DNA of 53,373 nucleotides, from the NCBI GenBank assembly GCA_041666045.1, contig JBAYHR010000005.1, forward strand, positions 1 to 53,373, given 5' to 3'. The stretch is from Minisyncoccota bacterium (GTDB lineage Bacteria; Patescibacteriota; Minisyncoccia; Phycocordibacterales; UBA9973). Both the position numbers and the translations under genes were made by a program. The notes under the pieces were generated by a model that saw only the letters and a list, made by a program, of their open reading frames with translations, made no database searches and was not told the origin of the DNA. This document shows, one piece after another, positions 1,659-52,574 of this stretch. The first letter of the stretch is position 1; every line of letters starts with the position of its first letter.

Positions 1659-4082
1659 CTATTTCGCTTCACCTAAATTATTTCCACACCCAAAATGCAC
1701 TGAAAGAGGAATATCGGTCTTAAAATGCAAATATGACCTTTCTAAGACGCTTTCCATGGCATTTTCTATTATTTTTTCAGCTTGTTTAATAACATCTTCT
1801 TCTATTTCATAAACCAATTCATCGTGTATTTGGAGAACCAAGTGTACTTTTGACAATAAACCTGCTTTTTCTAAATCTTCATGAGCATAACGAATAGCAA
1901 GCTTAATAAGATCTGCGGCCGTCCCCTGTACAGGAGCATTTGTAGCTGTACGCTCTGCCATATTTTTCAAAAATGGAATTCTTGATTTTATATTTGGAAA
2001 ATATCTTTTTCTACCAAATAAAGTTTCACTATATGTATTTTGGACAGCAAAATCTTTTACACTTTCTAAATAATCTCGCACTCCAGAAAATTGATTGAAA
2101 TAATTATCATAAAACTTTTGAGCTTCTTCACGAGTTCCTCCTAAGTTTTTCTTCAAACTAGAAACTCCCATTCCATAAATAATTCCAAAATTTATAACTT
2201 TAGCCCTGCGACGCATTTCATTATCAACTTTTTCTATTGGTACATTAAAAACAAAAGATGCTACACCAGCATGAATATCTTTTTTTTCACGAAAAATTTG
2301 TGTCATTTTTTTATCACCTGAAAGCATTGCTACGACTCGAAGCTCAATCTGACTATAATCAAATGCTGACAATTTGTATCCTTTCTGCGCTACAAATCCT
2401 CCTCTGATTCTTCTCCCTAATTCTGATTTAATTGGCAAGTTTTGTAAATTTGGGTCTTGAGAAGAAAATCTTCCTGTCGTCGTACCGTTTTGCAAAAACT
2501 TCGCATGTAATCTGCCATCATCACTAACCATTTTAGGAATCACATCGATGTAAGTAGAAAGAAGTTTTTGTAATTCTCTATGAGCCATTATTTCTTTTAT
2601 TATCGGATTACCTTCTTCAAGCTCTTCAAGAACTGAAATTTTTGTAGAAAAAGATCCACTCGCATTTTTTTTCTTACTTGATTTCATCCCCATCTTATCA
2701 AAAAGAACTTCTCCTAATTGCTTTGGAGAGTTTATATTAAACTCTGTTCCAGCCATTTCATATATTTTTTTAGTAATTTTATCTAATTCTTTATGATATT
2801 CTTTTGATAAATCTTCAAAATATTTTTTATCTATAAGGATTCCACGGTCTTCCATAGCTTTCACTATATGAATGATAGGTTTTTCAACTTCTTCAAAAAC
2901 AAGAGTTAGTTTTTCATCTTTCAATTTATTTAAAATATATTCTTCTGCTGTTTTAAAAGAGCTTGTTTTTGCATACAATAAAATATCATCAAGTGTTGGA
3001 CTCGTCATATCTGAATTTATAAGCCATAAAGCAATAGATGTTTGTTGTAATTGGTCTGGATCTACCAAGGAAGAATTATCTCCAGAAAGCGAGTTCAGAG
3101 AATTTTCGAGCTGGTCTGGACCCAAGCCGAGGACCCGAGAAAATTCTTCTGAACTCGCTTTCTGACTATTCTCAAAAAAACCTCTTAAACGTGAAAACAA
3201 ACTTCTAAATTCAAATTCAGAAAAAATTTGTTCAACTTTTTTCAAATCTGCATTTTCCCAAAAAGTTTTTTCTGGTAAAACAAAATTTATTGGAGCATCA
3301 GTTCTAATCGTTGCCAAGGTTTTTGAAAACAAAGCTTCTTCTTCGTTTTCTTTTACAAGATTAATTATTCTTTCTTTTATACCAGCTTTTTTAAAAGATT
3401 CAGGATCTTTTTTTATTTTTTTATAAATATCTTCAATCGTTCCAAAATTTACTATTAAATCTGTAGCTGTTTTTTCTCCTATCCCCTTAATACCAATAAT
3501 ATTATCTGATGGATCCCCTCTCAATCCTTTGTAGTCTGGTAAAAGTTTTGGCCCAAAACCAAAACGCGCCACAACCGCATCTTCGTCATATAAAATCGTA
3601 TCATTAATTCCTTTCTTTAATGTATAAACTTGAACTTTTTTATCATCCACTAATTGCATCGTATCCATATCTCCAGATGCAATAATTATTTTAATATTTT
3701 TATCTTTTTTAAATTGTTCAGCTATTGTTCCGAGCAAATCGTCAGCTTCAAAACCTGGTGAATCATAAACTGGGATATTAAATGCTTCAAAAATTTTTCT
3801 AGAATTTTTTAATTGAAATATTAAAGCATCATCCGCTTTTGCTCTACCTGCTTTGTAAGCTTCATACGCTTCATGTCGAAAAGTCTTTTGTGGAAGATCA
3901 TAACAAGCCACAATATAGTCTGGTTTTAAATCAGTAATAATCTTCATTAACATTGAAGAAAGACCATACAATGCGCCAGTTGGTTCTCCTTTTGACGATA
4001 AAAACTCAGGCAAGGCATGATAAGCGCGATGTATTATCGCATGAGAATCTAGCAACACTAGAAGTTTTGTTTTATCTTTCAT
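1659..4082 (-). CDS. polA: DNA polymerase I
   Basis: 807 aa. N-terminal 5-prime nuclease domain, and family A polymerase motifs DYSQIELRV, RRRAKVINFGIIYG and QIHDELV. The short linker leaves no full proofreading domain. Carries the GC-rich insertion at 3084-3164. Confidence 0.92.
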   Translation of the reverse strand: MKDKTKLLVLLDSHAIIHRAYHALPEFLSSKGEPTGALYGLSSMLMKIITDLKPDYIVACYDLPQKTFRHEAYEAYKAGRAKADDALIFQLKNSRKIFEAFNIPVYDSPGFEADDLLGTIAEQFKKDKNIKIIIASGDMDTMQLVDDKKVQVYTLKKGINDTILYDEDAVVARFGFGPKLLPDYKGLRGDPSDNIIGIKGIGEKTATDLIVNFGTIEDIYKKIKKDPESFKKAGIKERIINLVKENEEEALFSKTLATIRTDAPINFVLPEKTFWENADLKKVEQIFSEFEFRSLFSRLRGFFENSQKASSEEFSRVLGLGPDQLENSLNSLSGDNSSLVDPDQLQQTSIALWLINSDMTSPTLDDILLYAKTSSFKTAEEYILNKLKDEKLTLVFEEVEKPIIHIVKAMEDRGILIDKKYFEDLSKEYHKELDKITKKIYEMAGTEFNINSPKQLGEVLFDKMGMKSSKKKNASGSFSTKISVLEELEEGNPIIKEIMAHRELQKLLSTYIDVIPKMVSDDGRLHAKFLQNGTTTGRFSSQDPNLQNLPIKSELGRRIRGGFVAQKGYKLSAFDYSQIELRVVAMLSGDKKMTQIFREKKDIHAGVASFVFNVPIEKVDNEMRRRAKVINFGIIYGMGVSSLKKNLGGTREEAQKFYDNYFNQFSGVRDYLESVKDFAVQNTYSETLFGRKRYFPNIKSRIPFLKNMAERTATNAPVQGTAADLIKLAIRYAHEDLEKAGLLSKVHLVLQIHDELVYEIEEDVIKQAEKIIENAMESVLERSYLHFKTDIPLSVHFGCGNNLGEAK
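3084..3164 (-). repeat. 81-nt GC-rich palindromic insertion element, in frame in polA
   Basis: Arms cagaaagcgagttcagagaattttc / gaaaattcttctgaactcgctttctg flank the core gagctggtctggacccaagccgaggacccga. The core is homologous to the cca element at 50197-50282. Confidence 0.7.
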
Positions 4083-6301: not shown

Positions 6302-6348
6302 AAACCCAAATTTATAATTTGAGTTTTTAAAAATTAGAAACTAAAAAA

Positions 6349-6491
6349 GCATTAATCTCCAAACAATCCTTTTAGGGCTATGCCCCGAAAGTAATAAATT
6401 CTTGAAGGATAGCACCAGCGAACTAATAAAAGTGCCAGAACGTCCTACGCAAACTTATATAACCAATGGCTGATTGCTTAGAGATTAATGC
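6349..6491. ncRNA. candidate structured RNA or palindromic element of unknown class
   Basis: A 20-nt closing inverted repeat, gcattaatctccaaacaatc / gattgcttagagattaatgc (2 mismatches), encloses about 100 nt with at least two internal hairpins (ctttTAgggcTATgcccCGaaag; ggatagcac...gtgcc...gtcc). It sits in a 319-nt intergenic gap. No SRP, 6S, RNase P or tmRNA signature was recognised. Confidence 0.3.
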
Positions 6492-6620
6492 TCTCTAAAA
6501 AATAAAACAAGGTCTTAAACCTCTTGTATTAAGTATACTATATTCCCGACGAATCAAATGGTATAATGTGGATACTGTGTTGATAATGTACTTAGCATAG
6601 TCTAGCATATAATAAAATCA

Positions 6621-9410: not shown

Positions 9411-10067
9411 ATGGAAAGAAAAGAAAACTTTATACAAGGAGAATTGTATCATATTTATAATCGTGGAGTGGAAAAACGAATAATATTTCAAGGTGTTTCA
9501 GATTATAAAAGATTTTTAGCACTTTTATATATAGCCAATAGTGAAAATACTGTACAACTTCGTAATGATTTTTTAAAAACAAATTCACTTGATGAAATTT
9601 TTGAAAAAGATCGTGGCAAACAACTTGTAGCTATAGGCGCTTATTGTTTAATGCCAAATCATTTTCATCTACTTCTTACTCCCCTAATAGACGGGGGAAT
9701 ATCAAAATTTATGCTCAAACTTCAAACTGGCTATTCAATGTATTTTAATAAAAAAAATGACAGAGTTGGTGCTTTATTTCAAGGAATATTTAAATCACAA
9801 CATATATCTGATGATATATATTTAAAATATATTTATGCTTACATCCATCTTAATCCAGCAAAATTAAAAAATTCTAATTGGAAAACACAATCAAAAAGTT
9901 TTTTAAATCAATTAAAAAACTTTATCGCTGAATATTCTTATTCCAGCCTAAAAGAATATATTTTGAACAAATTTAAAATAATAAATCCTAAACCCTTTCC
10001 TGTTGATAAAAAAGATATCTCAAATTACAATTCCATTGTAGATGATTTTAGTGAGGGTATTTACTAA
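9411..10067 (+). CDS. IS200/IS605-like Y1 (HUH) transposase, REP-associated tyrosine transposase (RAYT)-like
   Basis: 218 aa. HUH motif in CLMPNHFHLLL and the catalytic Tyr region YIYAYIHLNPA. Confidence 0.75.
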   Translation: MERKENFIQGELYHIYNRGVEKRIIFQGVSDYKRFLALLYIANSENTVQLRNDFLKTNSLDEIFEKDRGKQLVAIGAYCLMPNHFHLLLTPLIDGGISKFMLKLQTGYSMYFNKKNDRVGALFQGIFKSQHISDDIYLKYIYAYIHLNPAKLKNSNWKTQSKSFLNQLKNFIAEYSYSSLKEYILNKFKIINPKPFPVDKKDISNYNSIVDDFSEGIY

Positions 10068-10096
10068 GATACCAAGGGTTCCCCTTGGTATCTTAG
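10064..10096. repeat. REP-like palindrome copy 3 (ctaagaTACCAAGGG-TTC-CCCTTGGTAtcttag)
   Basis: 15-bp perfect stem, overlapping the stop codon of the transposase gene. Confidence 0.75.
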
Positions 10097-10117
10097 TAAT
10101 AATGCTAAAATTTAAAT

Positions 10118-17645: not shown

Positions 17646-17793
17646 TGGTTAATATTATACTATTCTAATTAATGATTTGAATTTAAAAAACGTATTAACT
17701 ATGTTTATAATCTGTTGATAACTTTTTAGACCACACAATTTGTTTTTATAAAAATGTATTGATTTATTCCTGATAATATTATAGACTCTAATT

Positions 17794-17932: not shown

Positions 17933-18295
17933 ATGCTTCCTAAAAAAAATAGAGCCAACAAAAAGGCAATAGATCAAATCTTTCAAAAAGGTAGGTTTTT
18001 TAGTTCTAGTAATTTAACTTTTAAATTTATTTTAAATAAAAACACAAATCAACCAATGATTTCTTTCATTGTTCCTAAAACTGTTGTAAAAAAGGCAATT
18101 GTACGTAATTTATTAAGAAGACGCGGTTATGCTGTTTTAGAAAAGTATATAAAAGATTTCCCTGTTAGTATGGTAGGGGCTTTTATTTTTGGTAAAAAAA
18201 GTCTTGAAGTTTTTGGAAAGAGAAAAAATAAAAATTATAATCCAATTTTAAATCTTAAAAATGAAATTAAAATCATTATTAATAAAATTCATTAA
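17933..18295 (+). CDS. rnpA: RNase P protein component
   Basis: 120 aa, basic, starts MLPKKNRANKK..., in the conserved rpmH-rnpA-yidD-yidC order. Confidence 0.8.
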   Translation: MLPKKNRANKKAIDQIFQKGRFFSSSNLTFKFILNKNTNQPMISFIVPKTVVKKAIVRNLLRRRGYAVLEKYIKDFPVSMVGAFIFGKKSLEVFGKRKNKNYNPILNLKNEIKIIINKIH

Positions 18296-18551
18296 TCCCG
18301 TTAGAAGCAGGTCGCCCCAAGGTGACCGTAGCACTCACTTTTTAGTGAGGGCGGCTTCTAACGGGATTAATTTCTACCAACGTTTTTTGAGTCCACTAAA
18401 GAAACCGAGTTGTGTTTTTTATCCTTCTTGTTCAGAGTATTCAAAACAAGCAATAAATAAATATGGTGTTTTAAAAGGTTTTAAACTTTCTTTTCTTCGT
18501 ATTATTCGTTGCCATCCTTGGCAAAAAAATCATATTGACCCCGTTAAATAA
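18261..18551 (+). CDS. yidD: membrane protein insertion efficiency factor YidD, with a 27-codon palindromic insertion near the N-terminus
   Basis: Core FYQRFLSP...CVFYPSCSEYSKQAI...RIIRCHPW is the YidD signature. Removing 18291-18371 gives a normal N-terminus of the form MKLKSLLIKFIN-FYQRF. Confidence 0.75.
   Translation: MKLKSLLIKFINPVRSRSPQGDRSTHFLVRAASNGINFYQRFLSPLKKPSCVFYPSCSEYSKQAINKYGVLKGFKLSFLRIIRCHPWQKNHIDPVK
18291..18371. repeat. 81-nt GC-rich palindromic insertion element, in frame in yidD and overlapping the rnpA stop
   Basis: Perfect 18-nt arms attaatcccgttagaagc / gcttctaacgggattaat. The core has two sub-hairpins (ggtcgcc..ggtgacc and ctcac..gtgag). The arms resemble those of murI insertion 1. 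Confidence 0.7.
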
Positions 18552-21320: not shown

Positions 21321-22694
21321 TTAGCTTCCATCATCAGACCAGTGCCATGATTCACTGGCTAAATTTTTTAAACCATATGTTTTTGCATTATTAGAAAGCC
21401 ATTTAAAACAAACACTATTTTTTCCACCTGATTTTTCCATACTTTGTCCATTGCATGTAAAATCAATTGCTTTTCCTGATTCATGTTTTGAGTGGCCAGG
21501 TCTAGCTGTTGGAGGTTTGCATGTATTAGATGGTGAAGTATATATATCTGGGCATTTATGTTTTTTTCTGAGGTCTATTTGTTGATCATAAGTTCTTGCT
21601 CCCCAACCAGAGAGTATAATATTTACTTTTTTAGCCGCAGCAAGCATTTTTTGTGAATTTTCAGAAATAGATTTACATACGTTTATTTTTGTTGGTGATC
21701 CATAGGTGGTAATGTTTGTGTATCCTTCCTTGCAAGTACCTGTTGGGCTTGTAAGATTTGATGTACCTTCCCATGGTGCTAATTCTGTTTCAGGATCTAT
21801 TGTTAATGTTGCTTGTTCTAGTTTACTTAATCCTACATTAAGCAGATCCGGATTTAAAGTATTTAATATTGCATAAGAGCCAAGCGCTAATATAAGTCCT
21901 AATATTGCATGTGTTATTCTTTCTTTTCCTTCATTTTTTCCTGAAACAAGTTCACTCGTCATATATTCTATTCCACCCATTACAATCATTATCATTGAAA
22001 GAACTGCTGCAATGCCGATGAATATTTGTATCATCATATTTAAATAACCAGCAAAGCCTGTTCCCGGCGTGCAACCTTTATCTGTTGGGCCACAAGGGAC
22101 GCAAGTTTCTACTCCACCCTCAGTCGTGCATTTTTGAGTGCCAAGTTTTATACAAGTAGTTTTTGGAGGATTTGAATTATCTTGTGTGCAATTGGTTTCC
22201 CCTACTCCTGGCAATGGAGCTAAAGGATAATAATTTTCCTCTGTTTTTGTATTATTCTCCGTTGTTGGAATTATTGTATTATAAATTATTACTGGTTTTG
22301 AATTTGATTCAGTGCCTGTAGTTTTTGAAAAAGTTGCTGTTTTGTCTCCTATTCGCACATTAACTTGATAAGAAACACCTTGAACTAAAGTATTTTTAGT
22401 ATTATAAACAGCTTGATTGTTTATTATTTTTTCTATTATTGATTCTTCTTCTGTTGTTTTTGCATCAATTGTTTTAAAAAGTTTTACACTGGCGGAAGTG
22501 TTGTCTGGAACGTTTGTTGTATTAATTGAAATTAACCATGACCATCGGTCTGTTTGTGTGTTTAAGTCTTCTTTTTCTAATTTTAATGTAAGTGTTGGAT
22601 CAGCCGCTAAGCTTGCAATAGGAAAAACTAAACTAACCAAAAATAGCGTTAAAAAAGAAAAACTTATTATTTTTTTTATTTTAGAAATTAACAT
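21321..22694 (-). CDS. fusion protein: secreted N-domain + T4SS-pilin-like (TrbC/VirB2-like) two-TM module + M15 (VanY-like) peptidase
   Basis: 457 aa. Signal peptide and a Cys-rich linker. The two-TM module is FAGYLNMMIQIFIGIAAVLSMIMIVMGGIEYMTS...AILGLILALGSYAILNTL. The C-terminus has HSKHESGKAIDF and SWHWSDDG, typical of zinc D-Ala-D-Ala carboxypeptidases. Confidence 0.5.
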   Translation of the reverse strand: MLISKIKKIISFSFLTLFLVSLVFPIASLAADPTLTLKLEKEDLNTQTDRWSWLISINTTNVPDNTSASVKLFKTIDAKTTEEESIIEKIINNQAVYNTKNTLVQGVSYQVNVRIGDKTATFSKTTGTESNSKPVIIYNTIIPTTENNTKTEENYYPLAPLPGVGETNCTQDNSNPPKTTCIKLGTQKCTTEGGVETCVPCGPTDKGCTPGTGFAGYLNMMIQIFIGIAAVLSMIMIVMGGIEYMTSELVSGKNEGKERITHAILGLILALGSYAILNTLNPDLLNVGLSKLEQATLTIDPETELAPWEGTSNLTSPTGTCKEGYTNITTYGSPTKINVCKSISENSQKMLAAAKKVNIILSGWGARTYDQQIDLRKKHKCPDIYTSPSNTCKPPTARPGHSKHESGKAIDFTCNGQSMEKSGGKNSVCFKWLSNNAKTYGLKNLASESWHWSDDGS

Positions 22695-23649
22695 TGATTT
22701 CTTTTTCCAAATTTAAAAACATGCTTTTAATATTATTTATTGTAACTTTTACAGTTGAGTTTCCTATTTGCCCCGCTTCTGGCCTTATTCCAAGCTCATT
22801 TTTTGGATTAGGGGTAGTTATATCAGAACCGCCAAGCAACCATTTGAATTCCAGATCAGAAGAATTTAAATTTTTAGGTGAGAAAAAATAAGGCTCGGCA
22901 ATAAAAATTATTCCACTTTGATCTATTACAAATCCATTATCTATAGCTTTTTCGTATTTTGTGCCAAGATTTAAATCTTTCTGATAAAAAACTATTTTTG
23001 GATTTATTGGATTTATTGTTATTTTTCCTTGTCCGCTATTATTTCCTGCTAAATTTGATGTTGTTACTTCTACTGTATTTTGTTTGTCTAAAAAACTATT
23101 TTTGAATATGTAATAATTTTTTTTATAACCAGAAGAATCTGGTTTATTTGTATCATCTAGTTTCCAATTATAACTAAGGCCTGCGCTGTCGCGTGAATTA
23201 GTCAAAGCAACGATTTTTAATGTTCCTTCTCTTGCATTAAGGGCTTTTCCTTTATAAAATGGCGGTGTGTAAGAATCAGGCGCTTCCCAAAGCATATCTA
23301 TGTCGCTTGGAGTTATAATTATTTTTTTATTAATAAAAGATCCGTCAGAAGTTTGTATTTCCACTTCAAGAATTGTTTGAAGTCCGGTACTTGCGGTGGT
23401 AAAAGAAAAATCTTTCTTACCAACAGCTTGTATTGATAGTTGTCCGTTTAATTTCCAAGAAATATTTGCTTTATTCAAATCAGTTGAAAAAGTTGCGACA
23501 GATGCTTTTACTTCTTCGTTTGCTTTGGGATAGTTAGGATTTATACTGAGAACAACATCTGCACTTTGTACTTGCGCGTATACAGAAAAAGCGAAAAATA
23601 CATATATAAAAGCAGAAAATAAAATTGTAATCTTTCTTGCCATATTCAC
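22681..23649 (-). CDS. secreted beta-rich protein, unknown function
   Basis: 322 aa with a signal peptide (FAFSVYAQV). No family recognised. Overlaps the next gene by 14 nt. Confidence 0.45.
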   Translation of the reverse strand: MNMARKITILFSAFIYVFFAFSVYAQVQSADVVLSINPNYPKANEEVKASVATFSTDLNKANISWKLNGQLSIQAVGKKDFSFTTASTGLQTILEVEIQTSDGSFINKKIIITPSDIDMLWEAPDSYTPPFYKGKALNAREGTLKIVALTNSRDSAGLSYNWKLDDTNKPDSSGYKKNYYIFKNSFLDKQNTVEVTTSNLAGNNSGQGKITINPINPKIVFYQKDLNLGTKYEKAIDNGFVIDQSGIIFIAEPYFFSPKNLNSSDLEFKWLLGGSDITTPNPKNELGIRPEAGQIGNSTVKVTINNIKSMFLNLEKEINVNF

Positions 23650-23665
23650 ATTATATCACACATTT

Positions 23666-25501
23666 TTATCCTTTAGCTTCTTCTAATTCTTGTTTTTCCT
23701 TTTTAATTGAAAGAATTTGAGATGGATCAGAAGTTATTATTTGGTCTTCTGTATAAGAAGATATTACCTTTATTGCCACGTGTTTTAATCCTGCGAAGAA
23801 TATTCCCTCTCCCACGCCCGATTCTAGAAGTAAATATTTTTCTTCATCTGTAAGATTAAATGTTTTTTGTAATACGTCTATAGTAGAGGGTGATTGTTTA
23901 AGAAGGATTTGAATTGATGAGTTGGTAACAATAGGCACTCCATAAGGAGATTTCATAAAGTCTGCAGCGTCTTGGGTTATGGTCATAAGTCCTAAATAAT
24001 ATTTTCTTCCTCTTTTTGCTATAGAATATAAAAATGACGCAGTATCTTCAGATTTCATCATCCACCAAGCTTCGTCCACAACCAATAAGCGCTTTTTTAA
24101 GTTTTTACGGATAGCATTCCAAATATAATGAGTAACTATATACATGGCTATTGGTTTTAATTCATCTTCCATATCACGAACAGAAAATACTACGAATTTT
24201 TTATTAATATCAACATTGGAAGGTTTGTTTAAAAATGTAGACCAAGAACCGCGTGTATATTTGATAAGTCTTTGAACAACAGAATCACTTCCTTCCATTC
24301 CAGAAAGTACCATCTCAAAGTCTGAAAGAAGTGGCGGTTCAATATTTGTAAAATCAGATTCTGGTGTTATGTCTTTTATCGCATAAGTTTCTGAAATAGC
24401 GCGGTCCACCATAGAATCTTCTTCTGGGGTAAGACCACCTAACATAAGCCTGAAAAGACCCACTAAATTGATAATATTTGAACGTAATACATCTTCCGCT
24501 GTTTCATCTTCTCTCGGCATTGGCAAGTCAAACGGGTTGATATGGTGATCAGAAGACAAAGATATATTAAAATATCTTCCACCAACTGCTTCTGCTAAGT
24601 ATTCATATTCTCGTTCTGGGTCTATAACTATCACATCAATATCAAACATTAAAGATCTTAAAATTTCCAGTTTTGTGGCATAAGATTTTCCAGATCCAGA
24701 TTTGGCAAAAGTTACAGAGTTGTAGTTTTCTAATGAAAATCTGTCAAAAATAACTAGACTTGAATTGTGCCTGTTTACTCCATAAAGTATCCCTTTGTCT
24801 GAGGTTAAGTCAAAAGAGATAAATGGAAAGATGCTTGAAAGCGGTTCAGAATTTAATTTTTGGTGAATACCTAAAATATCATTACCTATTGGTATAACGC
24901 TTTTAAATCCATCTTCTTGTTGAAATAATGCCGGTTTAATATATATTAATTTTGATTCAAGAATGGATTTTATTTCACTTTCAATTTTAAAAAGTTCCAT
25001 ATCATTATCGGCATATATTGTAATATATACACCAACATCAAACATTTTTTCTTGCGCCTGCATTAAATTATCACGGAGACCTTCTAAGTCTTGATATGCA
25101 GTATCTAGCATTGGGTCACGCACCATGCCTTTAGATTCACGCACACTTATTTGACTTTGAACCTCAGCAACCTTTTTTTGAAATTGTCGCAGTGCCAAAG
25201 AAGTATCTATCGGATGTATAAAAATTGAAACATCAAAAACTTTATCCAAGTTTATTATTGGAGAAAACCAGTTATCAGTCAAGAATTTGGGATAAGATAT
25301 TATAAAAAAAGTACGCGCTATTTTATCACCCAAATTTATAGATTTTGATTCTATTTTTAAAGCTGATGGAGCTATGACGTCTTGGAGTTCAAGCGTTGCT
25401 GATTCGTAGATTTCCGCAGGCATTACTGCTAATACAGAAGCACTTGCTCCTTCGTTTGTTTCTATCTTCTTTTTTCCTAATAATGTATCTAAAAATGACA
25501 T
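23666..25501 (-). CDS. VirB4/TraE-like type IV secretion ATPase (C-terminal two thirds)
   Basis: 611 aa. Walker A FAKSGSGKSY, Walker B LLVVDEAWWMM, and the region IARTFFIISYPKFLTDNWF typical of Gram-positive VirB4 homologues. Confidence 0.75.
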   Translation of the reverse strand: MSFLDTLLGKKKIETNEGASASVLAVMPAEIYESATLELQDVIAPSALKIESKSINLGDKIARTFFIISYPKFLTDNWFSPIINLDKVFDVSIFIHPIDTSLALRQFQKKVAEVQSQISVRESKGMVRDPMLDTAYQDLEGLRDNLMQAQEKMFDVGVYITIYADNDMELFKIESEIKSILESKLIYIKPALFQQEDGFKSVIPIGNDILGIHQKLNSEPLSSIFPFISFDLTSDKGILYGVNRHNSSLVIFDRFSLENYNSVTFAKSGSGKSYATKLEILRSLMFDIDVIVIDPEREYEYLAEAVGGRYFNISLSSDHHINPFDLPMPREDETAEDVLRSNIINLVGLFRLMLGGLTPEEDSMVDRAISETYAIKDITPESDFTNIEPPLLSDFEMVLSGMEGSDSVVQRLIKYTRGSWSTFLNKPSNVDINKKFVVFSVRDMEDELKPIAMYIVTHYIWNAIRKNLKKRLLVVDEAWWMMKSEDTASFLYSIAKRGRKYYLGLMTITQDAADFMKSPYGVPIVTNSSIQILLKQSPSTIDVLQKTFNLTDEEKYLLLESGVGEGIFFAGLKHVAIKVISSYTEDQIITSDPSQILSIKKEKQELEEAKG

Positions 25502-25505
25502 AAAA

Positions 25506-26153
25506 TTAATTTGTTTGTTCTAATTGTATCTTCCCTTCCAATTCGCCAGGATTAAATACTTTATAAAATACTTCTACAACTTCTTCTGTGCCAAGTTGGG
25601 CTGATTTTATTCCACAACGCGCAAGTCCTTGTTGTATTACACTCACTCTTTGTTCCATTTGTGATCTTTTTTCTTCAAAGTCTGCTTGTTCTGTAGCTTT
25701 TATTTCCTCTTTACTTTTTTTGGAAAATAATCCGCCAAATATTCCAGCTTCTGATTTTAATGTTGTGTGCGTGTAAGGAACTATAATAAAAAAACTTTTT
25801 GTCATTATGCTTACTGATTCTGTAAAATTTCTAATAAAATCTATATATTCTCTAGTTTGCAATTTAAGCAATGGCTCGTTTTGCACTTTCATTCTGTTTT
25901 CTAAAAGTAAAAGATAAGGACGAATATCTAATTTTCTTGATTGAATGGATATTTGTATGGAAAAATCTAATGTGTTTAAGAAACTTTGAAATTGAAGTAT
26001 TGTCGCTTTTTGTTCGTCATATGATTTTAAAGATAAGTTTGTTGAATTTGCCAATACAATAGAACGCAGTCCCCCATCTTTTAATACTATAATACCATCA
26101 CGGACTTCCTTGATTGGCACGAACTCTTGAGTTGCTTTTGCTGATATGGCCAT
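25506..26153 (-). CDS. VirB4 N-terminal-domain-like protein (apparent split of VirB4)
   Basis: Start taken at MAISAKATQEFVPIKEVRDGIIVLKDGG...ANSTNLSLKSYDEQKATILQFQSFLNTLDF, which resembles the extreme N-terminus of Gram-positive VirB4/TcpF/Orf16-type ATPases. The stop lies 4 nt before the ATPase ATG. Confidence 0.45.
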   Translation of the reverse strand: MAISAKATQEFVPIKEVRDGIIVLKDGGLRSIVLANSTNLSLKSYDEQKATILQFQSFLNTLDFSIQISIQSRKLDIRPYLLLLENRMKVQNEPLLKLQTREYIDFIRNFTESVSIMTKSFFIIVPYTHTTLKSEAGIFGGLFSKKSKEEIKATEQADFEEKRSQMEQRVSVIQQGLARCGIKSAQLGTEEVVEVFYKVFNPGELEGKIQLEQTN

Positions 26154-26173
26154 ATATTTTAAATTAAAAATTA

Positions 26174-26599
26174 TTATTTTTCTTTTTTTAAATCTAGAAC
26201 GTCTAGACTCCATGCTAAATCTTTTAATTTACTTCCACTAAGTCTTACTGTTTCTTTATTCAGTATTTGGTTTGTTTGTTGTATCGCAATTTCAGTTTTT
26301 TGTTTAACATTTATTTTATTTTCTCTTCTTTTCCAAATATAAAGCTTATCTTGAAAAAAGAATTTGAAACCAGACTCAAGCATATTTATAAAAGGTTTTC
26401 CATTTGGACGATAGAAGGTAAGAGCCAAAGAAAATGATGCAACTAAAGCCATTGGGATAAAACCTAATAATAACCCTAATAATTTATATAAAACAAAACA
26501 CAAACCTCCTCCCCCAGCCAAATAAATAAATTGCCTAAAGGTAAATGGTCCAAATATTTTATCTTCTATGTCTAAAAATTGTGGTACTTTAAACTGCAT
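26174..26599 (-). CDS. PrgI/VirB3-like small membrane protein
   Basis: 141 aa. MQFKVPQFLDIEDKIFGPFTFRQFIYLAGGG followed by two TM helices, and positioned directly upstream of VirB4. Confidence 0.5.
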   Translation of the reverse strand: MQFKVPQFLDIEDKIFGPFTFRQFIYLAGGGGLCFVLYKLLGLLLGFIPMALVASFSLALTFYRPNGKPFINMLESGFKFFFQDKLYIWKRRENKINVKQKTEIAIQQTNQILNKETVRLSGSKLKDLAWSLDVLDLKKEK

Positions 26600-26613
26600 A
26601 ATTTTATTTTACA

Positions 26614-27366
26614 CTACTCAGGCATTTCACGATATGGGTCTACTTTAACTGAAAAAGATGGTGAAGTGGAAGCTGTGGCGCCGGATGTTGGTTTTATTGT
26701 CGCTCCTAATGGAACTTTTACGCCAATATCTTTTGGACCTTCTGGTGTTTTGGAAGTTTTAGACATATTGTTTAGAGAATATTCTGTTTTTGTATTTGGT
26801 ATTTGGAAAGAACCGGAAAGTTTTTGCGCTGAGATTGATTGCATTATTTTTTTATTTTGCATTTCTTTTGCGATAAGTTCAGGATCTTCAATTTTTTTAA
26901 TCATTTCATCTCTTGAATCACCACTCCTCCCGTCCCCTCCTCCATAAGGCGGGGAAGCTTGCCCCCCCTCCTTTTCAAGGAGGGGGTTGGGGGTGGTAAT
27001 TTCTATCCCTGCGTTATTTAATATTTCATCGTCTTTTTTTTCTTCTTGTTTCCCATACAAAGACATTAATTTTTCTCTTATCTCTTTTAAGATTTTTTCA
27101 TTTACTTCATTTACTATTTTTTTGTTTTTATCATCTGGTAACTGCAGACTTCCTTTTACAGATGCTTCAAATTTGTCTGGATGAACAAAGCCAAACATAA
27201 CCATATGCGTTTCAAGAGATAATTGTCCCATTTGTTCCACAGTAAGATTATTTTCCTTGCCTATTTCTGTGATTTTTTCATCAACATTTACAGCCATAAT
27301 CGCCCATCTTAAATCTTCTGGTAAACTCTCAAACTTTTTTTGTATTTCTTCTAATGTTATTTCCAT
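26614..27366 (-). CDS. hypothetical protein carrying a GC-rich repeat insertion
   Basis: 250 aa. Helical N-domain and a low-complexity C-terminal half. The segment TTPNPLLEKEGGQASPPYGGGDGRSGDS is encoded by the repeat at 26921-26997. Confidence 0.5.
   Translation of the reverse strand: MEITLEEIQKKFESLPEDLRWAIMAVNVDEKITEIGKENNLTVEQMGQLSLETHMVMFGFVHPDKFEASVKGSLQLPDDKNKKIVNEVNEKILKEIREKLMSLYGKQEEKKDDEILNNAGIEITTPNPLLEKEGGQASPPYGGGDGRSGDSRDEMIKKIEDPELIAKEMQNKKIMQSISAQKLSGSFQIPNTKTEYSLNNMSKTSKTPEGPKDIGVKVPLGATIKPTSGATASTSPSFSVKVDPYREMPE
26921..26997. repeat. GC-rich hairpin repeat (about two tandem units), in frame
   Basis: cccctcc-tccataa-ggcgggg, then aagcttg, then ccccccctcc-ttttcaa-ggaggggg-ttgggggtgg. 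Same architecture as 36630-36667. Confidence 0.65.
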
Positions 27367-36085: not shown

Positions 36086-36457
36086 ATGAAAGATATTTTT
36101 AAAAAAAGAAAAGCATTAATGTTTTCTGTTTTAATATTAGTGGTATTTTTTATGTCCACTACTTCGCTTGTATATGGCGCTGGTCTTTCTTGGTTTGGTG
36201 GTAATATTAAAAGTGTAATACCATGTACATGCAGTGGCGGTTCTAAGGTAACTATTATGGGATTACCAACATTTTTTAGTGGTTCATATCTTTATATGCC
36301 TGGTGAAACACAAGTAAGAGGTAAGGGTAATGTTGTTTCTGGTAGACAAATTCTCGGTCTTTATTCATTTGGAGGTACTTGCAAAGTAGTGGTTGGAGAA
36401 GCATGTATAAATTTACGTATTTCTAAAGGTACAATGACAATGATTGGCACTAATTAA
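36086..36457 (+). CDS. small secreted Cys-containing protein
   Basis: Start taken at MKDIFKKRKALMFSVLILVVFF (the ORF track starts at 36056). Has a signal peptide and six Cys. It is the only plus-strand gene in the block. Confidence 0.45.
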   Translation: MKDIFKKRKALMFSVLILVVFFMSTTSLVYGAGLSWFGGNIKSVIPCTCSGGSKVTIMGLPTFFSGSYLYMPGETQVRGKGNVVSGRQILGLYSFGGTCKVVVGEACINLRISKGTMTMIGTN

Positions 36458-37251
36458 TTTTTAGCAATATTTATCCAGTTTAAAAGCGATAAATCTTCTG
36501 CTCTTTTGTTTCCTAAATCTTGCGTTAGGTCTTGCCTAACGCATTTTTTTAAATTTGATGAAAGCTTTTTGCGTTTATGAGCAAAACCAGCGTGAATTAT
36601 TTCCCAGAATTTCTCTTCATTAATATATTCCCCCTCTCCTTTATAAGGAGAGGGTTGGGGTGAGGTGAAAAGTTTTCTTGAGATATTTTTTATTGCTATT
36701 ATTGCAGAATCAACTTTTGGCGCTGGTGAAAAATATCGCGCGGGTACCTTCATTATCATTTTTGGTTCTCCGTAGGCTTTTACAGAAACAGAAAGAATAC
36801 TTTCTTTTTTATCGTTTGCAATTATTCTTTTTGCAACTTCATGTTGAACCATCAACACCATAGTATTTGGTTGGTTTTTTTCTGTGAGAAATTTTTTTAA
36901 AATTGCTCCTGTTATATTATAAGGAATATTTGCTATTATTTTATAGTCTTGCTCAAAAATAATTTGCTTAATATTAAATTTTAAAATATCATCTTCTGCT
37001 AAAATTAATTTTTTATTTTCTATTTCTTTTTTAAATTTTTCTTGCAATAATTGAAAAAGATTACGATCTTTTTCAACAGCTATTACACAATTGGATTTTT
37101 CCAAGAGTTTTTCTGTAAGTACTCCTTTCCCGGGACCAATTTCTAAAATAATATCATCTGATAAAATTTCTCCAGCTTCAATTATTTTTTTAAGGGCAAT
37201 ATTAGATTTTAAAAAATTCTGCCCTAATGATTTTTTTGCTTTATGTATCAT
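36454..37251 (-). CDS. rsmA: 16S rRNA (adenine1518/1519-N6) dimethyltransferase RsmA/KsgA
   Basis: 265 aa with KSLGQNFL, EIGPGKGVLT and NIPYNIT. Carries the insertion TSPQPSPYKGEGEY. Confidence 0.9.
   Translation of the reverse strand: MIHKAKKSLGQNFLKSNIALKKIIEAGEILSDDIILEIGPGKGVLTEKLLEKSNCVIAVEKDRNLFQLLQEKFKKEIENKKLILAEDDILKFNIKQIIFEQDYKIIANIPYNITGAILKKFLTEKNQPNTMVLMVQHEVAKRIIANDKKESILSVSVKAYGEPKMIMKVPARYFSPAPKVDSAIIAIKNISRKLFTSPQPSPYKGEGEYINEEKFWEIIHAGFAHKRKKLSSNLKKCVRQDLTQDLGNKRAEDLSLLNWINIAKN
36630..36667. repeat. GC-rich hairpin repeat, in frame in rsmA
   Basis: ccccctctcc-tttataa-ggagaggg-ttggggtgaggtg. Same family as 26961-26997. Confidence 0.65.
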
Positions 37252-39266
37252 ATATAAATTGTTTTAATTTGATCTCCCTCCCCTTCTTTTTCTAAAATAT
37301 CAGCTGGAATATCCGCAATAAATTCTGATGGAGCATTTATTTGTCTTGATCCGAATATTGTACGGAAGTTTGCAAATGATAAAAATAATTTTTCTTTTGC
37401 GCGAGTAAGTGCTACATAAAAAAGTCTGCGTTCTTCTTCAGCGTCTTCTGTCTTATTGTCTTTTTGATGAGGGAAGAGTCCGTATTCTAATCCTGTTATA
37501 AAAACATATTTGAATTCTAATCCTTTTGATGCATGTACTGTCATTAGTTTAACAGCGTTTACTTTTTCCTTCTTCTCCCCACCGTCTATTAATGAATCTT
37601 GATCTGATGCAAGCGACGCATCTTCTAGAAGTTTTTCTATTCCAGTTCCGTCTTCTAGGTAGTCATATTTTAATGCTAAAGTTGCTAATTCCTTTATATT
37701 TTCAAGCCTTTCTAGGTCTTCTTCTGTCCCAGTGGAAAGCTCAGTTTCAATACCAGATTTTTTAACCGTGAATTTTATTACCTCAGAAGCTTTAGAATTT
37801 TTAATTTTTTCTTTTATTTCTTCTAATGTATTATAAAAATTATTAATTTTTAATTGCATTTTTATTGGCAAAGTTTCTCTTTCTCCGGAAAAAATTTTAG
37901 CAAGAGTTGTTTTCCCTATTCCTCTCGTTGGGAAATTTATTATTCTTTTTATGTCAGATAAACTTTCAGGATTTAATGCTGCGCGTAAATATGCGAGCGT
38001 ATCTTTTATTTCTTTTCTTTCAAAAAATTTAATACCAAGTACTTGATATGGGATATTATATCGAAGCATTGCTTCTTCTAATACCCGAGATTGGAAATTT
38101 GCGCGGTATAAAATTGCAATCTCAGATAGATCTGAGGATTTATTTTGGAGGGGTGTCTCGCAGATTGACGAGTCGAGAGGCAGCGCTGAGCGAGCACACT
38201 CAGACAGCGACCCATCCAAAATAGAATCCTCAGGTCTATCTTGAATCTCTAAAATTTTTGTTGCTACGAATTCTGCTTCATCGTTTTCATCCAATGCTTC
38301 ATATAGAGATATTTTTTCTCCTATTTCATTTTTTGTGAAAAGATTTTTGTCAGGTCGGTATTTATTTTTTTTTATTACTTCATTCGCTGCTTCGAGAATG
38401 TTTTGAGTTGAACGATAATTTTCTTCAAGAAGAATAATTTTTGCATTTGGATAATCTTTTTCAAAGTTTAATATATTTTTTAGATTTGCTCCACGCCAAG
38501 AATAAATATTTTGATCGGCATCTCCAACAACACAAATATTTTTATTGTTTTCAGAAAGTAAACGAGACATTAAATACTGCACCTCGTTTGTGTCTTGATA
38601 CTCGTCTATGTGAATGTATTTCCATTTTTCTTGATATATTTTTCTTATTTTCTCATTTTCTTTTAATAATTTTGTCGCTTTTAAAAGTAAATCATCAAAA
38701 TCTAATGAATTTTCTTTCATTTTTCTCTTTTCATAAATATTCCAAACTTGGGCAACAATTTTTCCTAAATAATCAACAGATTTTTCTGCATAATCAGATA
38801 GATGTGTGAATTTTCCTTTTTCTCGGCTGATTATATTTTTTATTTTTTTAGGCTCATATTGTTTTGGGTCTAAATTTAGCTCTTTTATAGTTTCTTTTAT
38901 TATTGAAATTGAATCTGATTCGTCTAAAATAGTAAAATATCTTGTTAATCCTAGTATTTTTGCATTTTCTTTTATTATATGGACACCAAGAGAGTGAAAT
39001 GTTGATACGAAAGGGATGGTATTTTGTCCTTTAGCGCTTTTTTCTATTTCTGAAATTATACGTTCACGCATTTCTTTTGCGGCTTTATTTGTGAAGGTTA
39101 CAGCTAAAATATTATCTGGAGAAATACCATTTTTTATTAAATTTATTATTCTGTGCGTTATTGTTTTTGTCTTTCCTGCGCCAGCTCCAGCAACAATAAG
39201 AAGCGGGCCTTCTATATGGCTGGCAGCTTCTTTTTGTGCACTATTTAATCCTTTTAAATGCTCCAT
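37248..39266 (-). CDS. ATP-dependent DNA helicase UvrD/PcrA
   Basis: 672 aa with AGAGAGKTKTITHRI, IHIDEYQDTN and VHASKGLEF. Carries an insertion of about 39 aa. Confidence 0.9.
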   Translation of the reverse strand: MEHLKGLNSAQKEAASHIEGPLLIVAGAGAGKTKTITHRIINLIKNGISPDNILAVTFTNKAAKEMRERIISEIEKSAKGQNTIPFVSTFHSLGVHIIKENAKILGLTRYFTILDESDSISIIKETIKELNLDPKQYEPKKIKNIISREKGKFTHLSDYAEKSVDYLGKIVAQVWNIYEKRKMKENSLDFDDLLLKATKLLKENEKIRKIYQEKWKYIHIDEYQDTNEVQYLMSRLLSENNKNICVVGDADQNIYSWRGANLKNILNFEKDYPNAKIILLEENYRSTQNILEAANEVIKKNKYRPDKNLFTKNEIGEKISLYEALDENDEAEFVATKILEIQDRPEDSILDGSLSECARSALPLDSSICETPLQNKSSDLSEIAILYRANFQSRVLEEAMLRYNIPYQVLGIKFFERKEIKDTLAYLRAALNPESLSDIKRIINFPTRGIGKTTLAKIFSGERETLPIKMQLKINNFYNTLEEIKEKIKNSKASEVIKFTVKKSGIETELSTGTEEDLERLENIKELATLALKYDYLEDGTGIEKLLEDASLASDQDSLIDGGEKKEKVNAVKLMTVHASKGLEFKYVFITGLEYGLFPHQKDNKTEDAEEERRLFYVALTRAKEKLFLSFANFRTIFGSRQINAPSEFIADIPADILEKEGEGDQIKTIYI
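38124..38241. repeat. about 118-nt GC-rich palindromic insertion element, in frame in uvrD
   Basis: Arms of about 32 nt, agatagatctgaggatttattttggaggggt / acccatccaaaatagaatcctcaggtctatct (2 mismatches, 1 indel). The GC-rich core has sub-hairpins (ctgag..ctcag). Confidence 0.65.
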
Positions 39267-49234: not shown

Positions 49235-49305
49235 GCGGTCATGGTTTAGTGGTAGAACACGTCCTTGCCAAGGATGAGACGGGAGTTCGATTCTCCCTGG
49301 CCGCA
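49235..49305 (+). tRNA. tRNA-Gly (anticodon GCC)
   Basis: Folded by hand. Acceptor GCGGTCA/TGGCCGC, anticodon loop TTGCCAA, T-arm GGGAG-TTCGATT-CTCCC. 71 nt, with no encoded CCA. Confidence 0.9.
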
Positions 49306-49314
49306 CAAAATTTA

Positions 49315-51698: not shown

Positions 51699-52574
51699 AT
51701 GCGCATAGGAATTTTTGATTCAGGATTAGGGGGCTTAATTATTGCCAAAGCAATAAGGAAATTAATGCCAGAATATTACTATGTTTATCTTGGAGACACT
51801 AAAAGAGTGCCTTATGGGAATAGATCTCATGAGACAGTTTTTGAATTTACAAAACAAGCTGTTGATTATTTATTTAGAAAAGAAAATTGTGAAATTGTAA
51901 TTTTAGCTTGCAACACTGCTTCAGCGAGAGCGCTTAGAAGAATACAGCAAGAATATTTAGCAAAGAATTTTCCAGACAGAAAAGTGCTTGGAGTTTTGAT
52001 TCCAACAGCAGAAGAATGCGCTAAGTATAAAAGTGTAGGAATAATAGCCACAAATGGAACCGTTTTATCCAATACTTTTCTTGATGAAATAAAAAAGCTT
52101 TCTCAAAAAACAAAAGTTTTTCAAAATCCTGCGCCAATGCTTGTGTCTTTAGCAGAAGAAGGGGAGAAAGTTTTAGTAAAACCATTTATTGAAAAATATT
52201 TGAAACCATTTAAAGGAAAAAAAATACAAGCTTTAGCACTTGGTTGTACACATTATCCTTTTTATAAAAATGAAATTAGAAAGATTTTAGGAAAGAATCC
52301 CATTAGAGCCCGCGAGGGATCTAAAAGACCCTCTGCCTCTAACGGGGCAAGTATAAAGGTCATCTCTCAAGATGAAATAATTCCAAAGAAATTAAAAGAG
52401 TATTTTAAAAGACATCTAGAGGTAGAAAAATTATTGTCAAAAAAGCAAACCCCGAACCAGAGCAAAGCTCGGTACGGGGCAAGGATCCTCGTAACGGACA
52501 TCACAAAAAACGTAGAAAAATTAACCCAAAAATGGTTTGGAAAAGACGTTAAACCAGAATTAATAAGATTATAG
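51699..52574 (+). CDS. murI: glutamate racemase
   Basis: 291 aa with IGIFDSGLGGL, ILACNTAS and LGCTHYPF. Contains two GC-rich insertions. Confidence 0.9.
   Translation: MRIGIFDSGLGGLIIAKAIRKLMPEYYYVYLGDTKRVPYGNRSHETVFEFTKQAVDYLFRKENCEIVILACNTASARALRRIQQEYLAKNFPDRKVLGVLIPTAEECAKYKSVGIIATNGTVLSNTFLDEIKKLSQKTKVFQNPAPMLVSLAEEGEKVLVKPFIEKYLKPFKGKKIQALALGCTHYPFYKNEIRKILGKNPIRAREGSKRPSASNGASIKVISQDEIIPKKLKEYFKRHLEVEKLLSKKQTPNQSKARYGARILVTDITKNVEKLTQKWFGKDVKPELIRL
52298..52347. repeat. GC-rich hairpin insertion 1 in murI
   Basis: tcccattagagcc ... gcctctaacgggg with the inner hairpin gaggg-atctaaaaga-ccctc. The arms resemble the yidD element. Confidence 0.6.
52450..52479. repeat. GC-rich hairpin insertion 2 in murI
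   Basis: ccccgaaccagagc-aaa-gctcggtacgggg (imperfect), followed by caaggatcctcgtaacggac. Confidence 0.45.

Follow-up and report, generated by a model that had tools for sequence, protein, structure and literature searches.

In the 53,373-nt stretch analysed here, referred to below as the window, a GC-rich palindrome is inserted at the overlap of rnpA and yidD. We propose that this palindrome is, with high probability, a non-autonomous and translated copy, resembling a miniature inverted-repeat transposable element (MITE), of a tiny mobile family that is associated with a GIY-YIG nuclease, the nuclease being the presumed mover. The palindrome is an insertion with a target-site duplication, and orthologous sites without it exist in relatives. 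It belongs to a dispersed family whose copies in open reading frames (ORFs) tend to preserve the frame, whose stems covary, and whose termini also bracket a nuclease gene. The role of this nuclease as the mobilising enzyme, and the manner of movement, are what we infer from these observations.

An inverted-repeat search delimited two arms at 18291-18308 and 18354-18371, each 18 nt long, 100% complementary and separated by 45 nt. Folded as RNA, the + strand adopts a three-way junction in which a perfect 18-bp stem closes two hairpins, with a minimum free energy (MFE) of -48.7 kcal/mol (z = -9.98; mean of the shuffles -19.1 kcal/mol; 0 of 200 shuffles as good), and the - strand reaches -44.1 kcal/mol (z = -7.85). 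The GC content of the element rises to 47%, compared with 30% for the genome and the window. The palindrome with two GC-rich sub-hairpins postulated in the original prediction, which was made from the sequence alone, is real. Its terminal repeats had been taken to be perfect over 18 nt. The complementarity is indeed complete, but the outer six nucleotides, ATTAAT on both sides, are a direct target-site duplication that is palindromic by chance and that makes arms of 12-13 nt look like arms of 18 nt. The inverted terminus proper is T-CCCGTTAGAAGC (12-13 nt), and the core of the element comprises 71 nt (T-CCCGTTAGAAGC...GCTTCTAACGGG-A). The DNA gained at the site amounts to 75 nt, that is 25 codons in a stop-free frame, and not to exactly 81 nt as had been assumed. 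The supposed identity in length with a palindrome in polA did not hold either: the latter measures 82 nt from arm to arm at 88% complementarity, and as its termini are different, the likeness in length is coincidental.

Copies sharing the double hairpin of yidD, termed B type here, provide comparative evidence for the fold. In an alignment of eight such copies, 91.6% of the cells are paired and ten pairs are altered on both sides; slid-register controls pair at 30-47% only, and the covariation score of 0.25 is reached by none of 500 shuffles, which give 0.13. Hairpin 1, with 98% of cells paired, has two of its seven pairs altered on both sides. In hairpin 2 this applies to three of eight pairs, the stem letters varying among copies with pairing retained. 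The columns that fail to pair are those of the target duplication. The same structural pattern is visible by eye in an alignment of 13 B-type sequences, in all of which CCCGTTAGA is unchanged. Rfam at the gathering threshold returned only four tRNAs for the whole window, and a permissive scan of 18240-18420 gave a best E-value of 0.22, far under gathering scores.

Sites lacking the insert are frequent among relatives. Dozens of YidD proteins of 69-71 aa align with a gap of 25 aa; the closest of them are 92% (P0008) and 84-86% (P0009-P0011) identical outside the insert, and P0008 reads MKLKPLLIKFINFYQRFLSP at the junction. In DNA, the nearest relative (L216) has a single ATTAAT and reads ...AAATTTATTAATTTTTATCAA, and the window reads ...AAATTCATTAAT, followed by 69 nt and ATTAATTTCTACCAA; the empty-site DNA of L216 and L003 carries a single ATTAAT or ATTTCT. 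A soil-metagenome contig (run X3), about 88-90% identical to the window, skips 75 nt (18291-18365), six nucleotides fitting either side. The element is present in the window, L001, L002 and L211-L215, and absent from L003, L004, L216 and the run X3 contig. The predicted restoration of a canonical YidD N-terminus upon removal of the element thus has its natural counterpart in the nearest relatives (P0008, L216). The eight filled loci have matched duplications, ATTAAT in four and ATTAGT in four (one of the latter drifted to ATTAGC on the right side); being matched and yet different, these indicate repeated insertion rather than inheritance of a selected feature.

Other members of the family follow the same pattern. 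In the flanks of 151 elements, direct repeats outnumber inverted ones by 95 to 4 informative cases, and the six bases outside CCC...GGG have the consensus ATKMAT. Exact 6-nt repeats occur in 32 cases and vary in sequence (ATGAAT, ATTCAT, ATTGAT, ATTAAT and others). The outermost base covaries (T..A or C..G) and therefore has to be counted as part of the terminus. This leaves a duplication of about 4 nt, TKMA, within a palindromic target A/TKMA/T.

In yidD, the stop codon of rnpA (18293-18295) lies inside the left ATTAAT, in agreement with the overlap noted in the original prediction, and is left unaffected by the insertion. With 75 being a multiple of three and the PVR...SNG frame free of stops, the copy is tolerated and translated as 25 residues. 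Residues 34-95 of the resulting protein align to positions 6-67 of the Pfam YidD profile (E 1.9e-26). A protein search found the insert peptide, xPVRSRSPQGDRSTRLLARAASNGIx, in the YidD of the window and in seven other YidD proteins, and P0007 was the sole match to a tandem two-peptide query of the insert. The YidD matches place the organism among the Patescibacteria/CPR, as a bacterium of Paceibacteria/Nomurabacteria type. Where the stems of the yidD copies have undergone compensatory changes, the encoded residues differ too (H>R together with V>A; R>K together with R>C). The comparison of yidD in relatives argues that the element is conserved at the level of nucleotides and structure and that the peptide is not; the original prediction had named missing empty sites together with a conserved peptide as evidence against insertion, and the relatives show the opposite on both counts.

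The reading through is not restricted to yidD. Of 166 family copies, 38 (23%) lie in long ORFs; the core length is a multiple of three in 32 of these, and 27 use the PVR..SNG frame. No such bias in length exists among the copies outside ORFs, which divide 43:53:32 by length modulo 3. The middle frame of each terminus holds TAG or TAA. Selection for frame preservation would have no point unless the insert is translated by ribosomes.

The family was delimited by scanning one genome per species with the pattern TCCCRTTAGA-N28-58-TCTAACGGG. Paired termini were found at at least 120 loci of these species-representative genomes, bearing out the suspicion that the arms mark a dispersed element. Among the 80 titled loci listed, about 50 belong to Patescibacteria, nine to Planctomycetota and five to Omnitrophota. 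Most of the matches listed fall in classes of the Candidate Phyla Radiation (CPR), namely Saccharibacteria, Nomura-, Uhr-, Yanofsky-, Kaiser-, Levy-, Doudna-, Campbell- and Liptonbacteria; the other matches listed comprise Omnitrophota, Planctomycetota, WOR-3 and a few proteobacterial metagenome-assembled genomes. Core sizes range from 47 to about 120 nt, and the highly variable inner sequence forms subfamilies. The B type is also found in unrelated genes and in both orientations (L006, L067, L014, L041, L075), and a 49-nt single-hairpin subfamily unites the copy in murI with L051, L056, L059, L076, L001:10279 and L002:621. Further subfamilies include other GC-rich double hairpins as well as forms that are AT-rich and contain a third AGCGGGAT motif internally; in some of these AT-rich forms, a Shine-Dalgarno-like AAGGAGG box stands directly before a start codon. 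For example, the AT-rich 77-nt copies L027:4315, L070:7194 and L072:1254 have AAGGAGG/GGAAGGAGAG 8-14 nt before the right terminus and ATG. Such AT-rich copies could supply a ribosome-binding site to the downstream gene. Of 150 mini-copies, 61 lie directly at the beginning of an ORF that has 60 codons or more, versus about 2% of random positions. L001 and L002 contain 5-6 copies per 20 kb, and the element occurs on many other contigs of the source metagenomes; the stretch itself is matched without a difference by contigs from two independent metagenome runs. In the viral collection IMG/VR, only six putatively viral contigs (L205-L210) have the mini-element pattern.

The second family member of the window lies in murI. 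The arms had been described as shared between the yidD and murI insertions. This is true of the paired element, since 52298-52347 belongs to the 49-nt subfamily and has the same family termini, but the lone 12-mer on its own is not significant (14 matches versus 15.6 expected). The murI copy is in frame (NPIRAREGSKRPSASNGA), its 48-nt core being read in the PxR..SNG frame. Its pairing is weakened (-22.7 kcal/mol, z -2.7) and a duplication is no longer recognisable. About 100 nt downstream of this copy, at 52450-52479, murI contains a second small in-frame hairpin (CCCCGAACC..GGTACGGGG), and the alignment of MurI to solved structures ends at residue ~200, just before both inserts.

A full-length form of the element was found in L002, where the family termini, with an ATTGCAT duplication, enclose 276 nt that contain a single ORF of 84 aa. 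Its product matches Pfam GIY-YIG over residues 3-69 (E 8.8e-18), the sole domain above the curated cut-off; a weak match to T5orf172 remains under its cut-off. L002 carries this unit at the start of a PrgI-like gene, in the order ATGCAAT, 276-nt element with the 84-aa GIY-YIG ORF, ATGCAATTCAAAG; the window has the empty version of the same site. On its presence and absence at orthologous sites and on its own duplication, we regard the nuclease-encoding unit as mobile.

For a broader view we used the best 80 of 492 metagenomic relatives of the 84-aa protein (61-100% identity). Both termini, with at most one mismatch, bracket the nuclease gene in 70 of the 80 loci, and CCCGTTAGA stands upstream of 67 of 78 scorable GIY-YIG genes. 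The unit measures 271-304 nt between the termini, 276 nt being commonest, and encodes a single-domain nuclease of 79-84 aa that starts 10-20 nt inside the left terminus and whose TAA stop is embedded in TCTAACGGG of the right terminus. The outer base pair is T-A in 54, C-G in 12 and T-G in four units. The codon following GGG is ATG in 50 and GTG in nine cases, and it begins an ORF of at least 60 codons in 49 of 70. A 4-nt duplication was found in 34 loci; TGAA and TGGA account for most of these, and the reverse complement never occurs. According to these data, the full-length unit sits at the start codon of a host gene and in the same orientation as this gene, whose ATG or GTG is restored by the last base of the element (A or G) together with the duplicated TG. 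In some cases the gene call begins at the captured upstream host ATG (MDPVRDHL-MFYY..., 92 aa). The GIY/YIG, Arg, His and Glu motifs are retained in 26 distinct intact nuclease proteins, which databases name 'GIY-YIG nuclease family protein', 'putative endonuclease' or 'excinuclease ABC subunit C'. The best matches among solved structures are the UPF0213 proteins BH0048 and EF2693 (1zg2, E 2.7e-9; 1ywl, E 1e-5), with SLX1 weak and far behind. The inner sequences of the mini-copies are independent structured modules and not a deletion remnant of the nuclease gene.

From these features a possible course of events can be sketched. The nuclease would recognise the stem of the two paired termini and cut a few nucleotides outside at a fixed distance. 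Pairing into this stem probably takes place in DNA that is single-stranded or extruded, as has been shown for Ssn, a related group of nucleases (see below). Staggered cuts at A/TKMA/T, followed by host repair or ligation, would create the 4-nt duplication; the yidD copy would have entered the palindromic target A/TTAA/T, the duplication leaving ATTAAT on either side. The GC-rich inner hairpins may hold the termini paired, and selection acting on the lineage of the element may preserve them. Where the element sits at a start codon, these hairpins may fold away, keeping the ribosome-binding site of the host near the rebuilt ATG. Two specific routes were discarded. Homing by recombination with co-conversion of the flanks does not fit the window, whose flanks match those of the empty L003 and L216 and not those of the filled L001 and L002. 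A strict cohesive-end cut-and-ligate route, with one overhang per lineage, does not fit nuclease copies that are 93-100% identical and show TGCA(A), TGGA and TGAA.

Several points weigh against the nuclease-driven scheme. GIY-YIG enzymes are hydrolytic and work without a covalent intermediate, so that strand joining would have to be achieved by something else, and we know of no established transposase of the GIY-YIG type. There is no GIY-YIG gene within the 53-kb window, so that mobilisation in trans remains putative for this genome. Furthermore, a B-type element occupies the identical yidD codon in at least two independent lineages, a third being probable because the window nests among empty relatives. 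This recurrence goes beyond simple ATKMAT targeting and could reflect homing-like specificity or host-level selection; inspection by eye revealed no extended target similarity where B-type copies sit elsewhere. A constraint at the RNA level could also account for the G.T pair, which is invariant, and for the compensatory changes in situ. An AlphaFold2 model of YidD with the insert is uninformative, its confidence being low (mean pLDDT 57.5, and below 50 over the initial half of the insert).

This raises the question if another, unseen transposase or host recombination recognises the termini, in which case the GIY-YIG gene would be a passenger or a domesticated Ssn-like cutter (restricting, e.g., incoming transforming single-stranded DNA) and not the mover. 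Short duplications and a palindromic target consensus are indeed typical of DDE transposases, it is not obvious how a hydrolytic nuclease of 80 aa would carry out strand transfer, and the window contains mini-copies in the absence of a nuclease gene; the Ssn of Neisseria is reported to modulate transformation and not to transpose (PMC11893778). We nevertheless consider this rather unlikely. The nuclease is the only ORF between the termini in those 70 loci, with its stop codon inside a terminus, orthologous sites either contain or lack the entire 276-nt unit, which has a duplication of its own, and no other conserved gene adjoins the elements in about 1.1 Mb of loci.

A benefit to the host, either through a structured RNA that tunes coupled translation or mRNA stability or through a useful peptide in YidD, might explain why the same yidD codon is occupied in eight divergent genomes, with the element about 95% and the flanks about 70% identical, why the fold is kept by compensatory changes with an invariant G.U-type pair, and why the location is a translationally coupled gene overlap. 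Yet the nearest relatives retain the same operon without the element, near-identical B-type copies reside in the unrelated genes named above, the insert peptide changes where the stem covaries, and the differing duplications point to repeated insertion, all of which leaves retention for host benefit with little credibility. Still less probable is an intervening sequence that is removed from the RNA, for instance by RNase III cutting of the stem and rejoining, or that is bypassed in translation. The perfect 12-18-bp stem would bring both junctions together, and CPR rRNA genes carry many short non-intron insertions (PMC11270868). However, with excision from the RNA there would be no need for a multiple of three in 32 of 38 ORF copies, compared with about one third outside ORFs; the palindrome matches no Rfam family, intron or ribozyme, and no bacterial pathway of this kind for religating mRNA is established. 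An origin as a chance inverted repeat or assembly artefact can be regarded as refuted: an AT-rich background does yield many weak inverted repeats, but not one with z ~-10 against shuffles, with difference-free contigs in two independent metagenome runs and with hundreds of related copies.

Taking the preferred reading, movement of the mini-copies by the GIY-YIG nuclease, one step further, these elements might be the smallest autonomous DNA transposons known: units of ~280 bp and of a new enzymatic class, whose sole gene encodes a single-domain GIY-YIG protein of ~80 residues (Ssn-like), and which insert at start codons, rebuild ATG or GTG, borrow the translation signals of the host and spawn in-frame mini-palindromes in essential genes across Patescibacteria, Omnitrophota and Planctomycetota. 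We put this forward tentatively, as a possibility that we hold somewhat short of probable. If true, the in-frame palindromes of other reduced genomes, of the type known from Rickettsia, may share this origin, and the recurrent hit of the yidD codon would represent a homing-like target choice.

For 25 years no mobilising enzyme has been known for the in-frame palindromic repeats of reduced genomes (Rickettsia palindromic elements, RPEs, and similar). The family presented here unites sharp termini with clean target duplications, with orthologous sites that are empty and with a full-length form of a single gene, so the question can be tested directly with an 84-residue protein and short oligonucleotides. 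In practical terms, the elements inflate and distort CPR gene calls through PVR...SNG peptides, false N-terminal extensions and 'excinuclease ABC subunit C' labels. A survey of CPR rRNA genes described GIY-YIG-encoding non-intron insertions together with many short (<200 bp) insertions without ORFs, the nature of which was unexplained (PMC11270868); these insertions may belong to our family, which may account for some of the short ones.

The features of the element and its surroundings are compiled in Table 1.

Table 1. Positions in the window of the yidD element, its parts, the genes at the insertion site and related sites
Feature	Position	Strand	Remarks
yidD, host gene, 96 aa	18261..18551	+	ORF reads through the element; insert = residues ~12-36 (PVRSRSPQGDRSTHFLVRAASNGIN)
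rnpA, upstream gene	17933..18295	+	Pfam Ribonuclease_P, E 7.8e-10
Left target-site duplication copy	18291..18296	+	ATTAAT; minimal core TTAA 18292-18295; holds rnpA stop TAA
Left terminal inverted repeat	18296..18308	+	T-CCCGTTAGA-AGC
Internal hairpin 1	18310..18327	+	GGTCGCC-CCAA-GGTGACC, invariant G.T pair; MFE fold
Internal hairpin 2	18331..18352	+	GC-A-CTCACT-TTTT-AGTGAG-G-GC; MFE fold
Right terminal inverted repeat	18354..18366	+	GCT-TCTAACGGG-A
Right target-site duplication copy	18366..18371	+	ATTAAT; core TTAA 18367-18370
Second family member, in murI	52298..52347	+	49-50-nt single hairpin, T-CCCATTAGAG...CTCTAACGGG-G
Orthologous empty site, start codon of PrgI-like gene	26593..26605 (start 26599)	-	aaaatt-ATGCAGTTTAAAG

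The gene order around the insertion is dnaA (- strand), rpmH, rnpA, yidD, yidC and jag, and the synteny dnaN-dnaA-rpmH-rnpA-yidD-yidC-jag is common to the window and L001-L003. The intergenic region between dnaA and rpmH (17646-17793) has a GC content of 18-23% and is probably the replication origin region. Further downstream, at ~21321-27366 and in L001-L003, a conserved cluster is found, with Pfam matches in the syntenic loci to a TraG-like P-loop ATPase, TraC-like and PrgI-like proteins and T4SS-pilin; this cluster is a patescibacterial type IV secretion-like system.

The window contains several other palindromes. Those in polA (3083-3164, - strand ORF 1659-4082) and in the gene of the CCA-adding enzyme (50197-50282, ORF 49249-50877) are GC-rich and in frame, with 24-nt arms at 88-92% complementarity, a common inner core (GGTCCTCGG..GGGTCC..CCAGACC) and different outer arms; neither has CCCGTTAGA termini or an obvious duplication. 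The arms of the cca palindrome contain ACGGGAT/ATCCCGT. A third in-frame type, CCCCTCTCC-TTnnAA-GGAGAGGGTTGGGG, is found at 26904-27015 (ORF 26614-27366, - strand) and at 36628-36669 (ksgA/rsmA ORF 36454-37251, - strand); by BLAST, the ksgA palindrome has two copies in L002 (11683-11722, 19210-19253) and one in L090, and it is multi-copy in related genomes. The strongest fold of the window (~-60 kcal/mol) is a near-perfect, in-frame palindrome of 116 nt (38125-38240) in a UvrD/PcrA-like helicase ORF (37248-39266, - strand), of which no further copy was found in ~1.1 Mb of loci. The palindromes in polA, cca, the uvrD-like gene, ksgA and ORF 26614-27366 were considered as family members and rejected on account of their different termini. 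In the intergenic gap 6310-6620, arms of 21 nt with 90% complementarity enclose 103 nt (6348-6492); this region, which has no Rfam match at the gathering threshold, may represent a structured RNA that lacks an annotation, or else a further element. Finally, a perfect 18-bp hairpin with a 3-nt loop (10061-10099) overlaps the stop of ORF 9411-10067 and is terminator-like without a clear T-run.

Known systems share some of these features. GIY-YIG homing endonucleases (I-TevI, Seg) have a separate DNA-binding domain and spread by gene conversion into the same allele; inverted termini, duplications and miniature derivatives are not known for them. Common to both are the catalytic fold and a life as selfish genes between or within host genes. 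An assignment to the homing endonucleases was rejected in view of the single domain, the many unrelated sites, and the inverted termini with duplications seen here; likewise, the nuclease scores 21 bits with the model of group I intron endonucleases, the cut-off of which is 56. REP/BIME repeats with their RAYT (Y1/HUH) proteins and IS200/IS605 elements use covalent HUH intermediates and are not known to produce a target duplication, REPs being extragenic. Our family resembles REP/RAYT in having a small single-domain nuclease gene flanked by hairpin repeats that would be its substrate and would be recognised as structured single strands, and differs in the GIY-YIG fold, the 4-nt duplication and the frequent intragenic or start-codon positions.

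For the mode of action, the closest precedent is the Ssn system described by Chenal et al. (Nat Commun 2025, PMC11893778). Ssn are single-domain GIY-YIG nucleases of 94 aa. The genes encoding them are flanked by hairpin repeats (NTS/SRM), to which the enzymes bind, and single-stranded DNA is cut just upstream of the hairpin, also with the hairpin halves on separate strands (PMC11893778). Ssn and hairpin repeats (NTS/SRM, dRS3) occur in Neisseria, Wolbachia, Rickettsia and others, and the authors remark on an IS-like layout and on the repeat-rich Rickettsia and Wolbachia (PMC11893778). A small single-domain GIY-YIG gene with hairpin-forming repeats on both sides, and the dispersal of these repeats in the genome, are common to both systems. 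In contrast to the full hairpin on each side of Ssn, the elements described here have one half-palindrome per flank with the gene within the loop, and whereas NTS are rarely located inside genes (2%; PMC11893778), 23% of our copies lie in ORFs, in frame. The published SRM consensus HGTCWYN(0-2)YYVSBRHN(0-5)WNVSBRGN(0-2)RNCYNB has no match on either strand of the 53-kb window or of 205 kb around the 80 nuclease genes, and our nuclease is no more than a candidate member of the Ssn family (cd10448). In the text of PMC11893778 that was searched, neither duplicated target sites and empty sites nor insertion at start codons, in-frame colonisation or Patescibacteria/CPR are mentioned. Literature on the termini, GIY-YIG repeats, CPR MITEs and UPF0213/YhbQ yielded no prior description of the element, PMC11893778 being closest, and for elements of this kind the literature searched reports neither signs of mobility nor in-frame copies or a targeting of start codons. 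Measured against the text searched, our findings extend the Ssn/hairpin-repeat discovery of 2025 to the CPR and add evidence from genomes that such elements are inserted and lost, target start codons and colonise coding regions.

The nearest analogues of the mini-copy are RPEs and MITEs. The RPEs of Ogata et al. 2000 reportedly reside in frame in essential genes of a reduced genome, where they are translated and tolerated; they are said to be conserved at the level of nucleotides and structure and to measure about 100-150 bp. To our knowledge, no autonomous partner, clear duplication or start-codon preference has been established for them. As with RPEs, the palindromes in yidD and murI are in frame and read through in protein-coding genes. 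Unlike RPEs, the yidD element is 71 nt long and has defined termini of 10-13 nt, a duplication of 4-6 nt and a nuclease-encoding full-length form; the sequence family is probably unrelated, and the host is of Patescibacteria type and not one of the Rickettsiales. Classical MITEs are deletion derivatives of insertion sequences with DDE transposases. Our mini-copies differ from these in that their inner sequence is not the remnant of a coding element and in that the only associated gene encodes a GIY-YIG nuclease. Bacterial MITEs such as the Correia elements and the Coxiella QMITEs are short, non-coding and multi-copy, with inverted termini and a duplication, show polymorphism of filled and empty sites and sometimes add peptides to ORFs (PMC10969869, PMC5896051). 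Four hallmarks of MITEs are found in the present family: shared inverted termini, duplications that vary with the site, presence or absence at orthologous positions, and small non-coding units in many copies.

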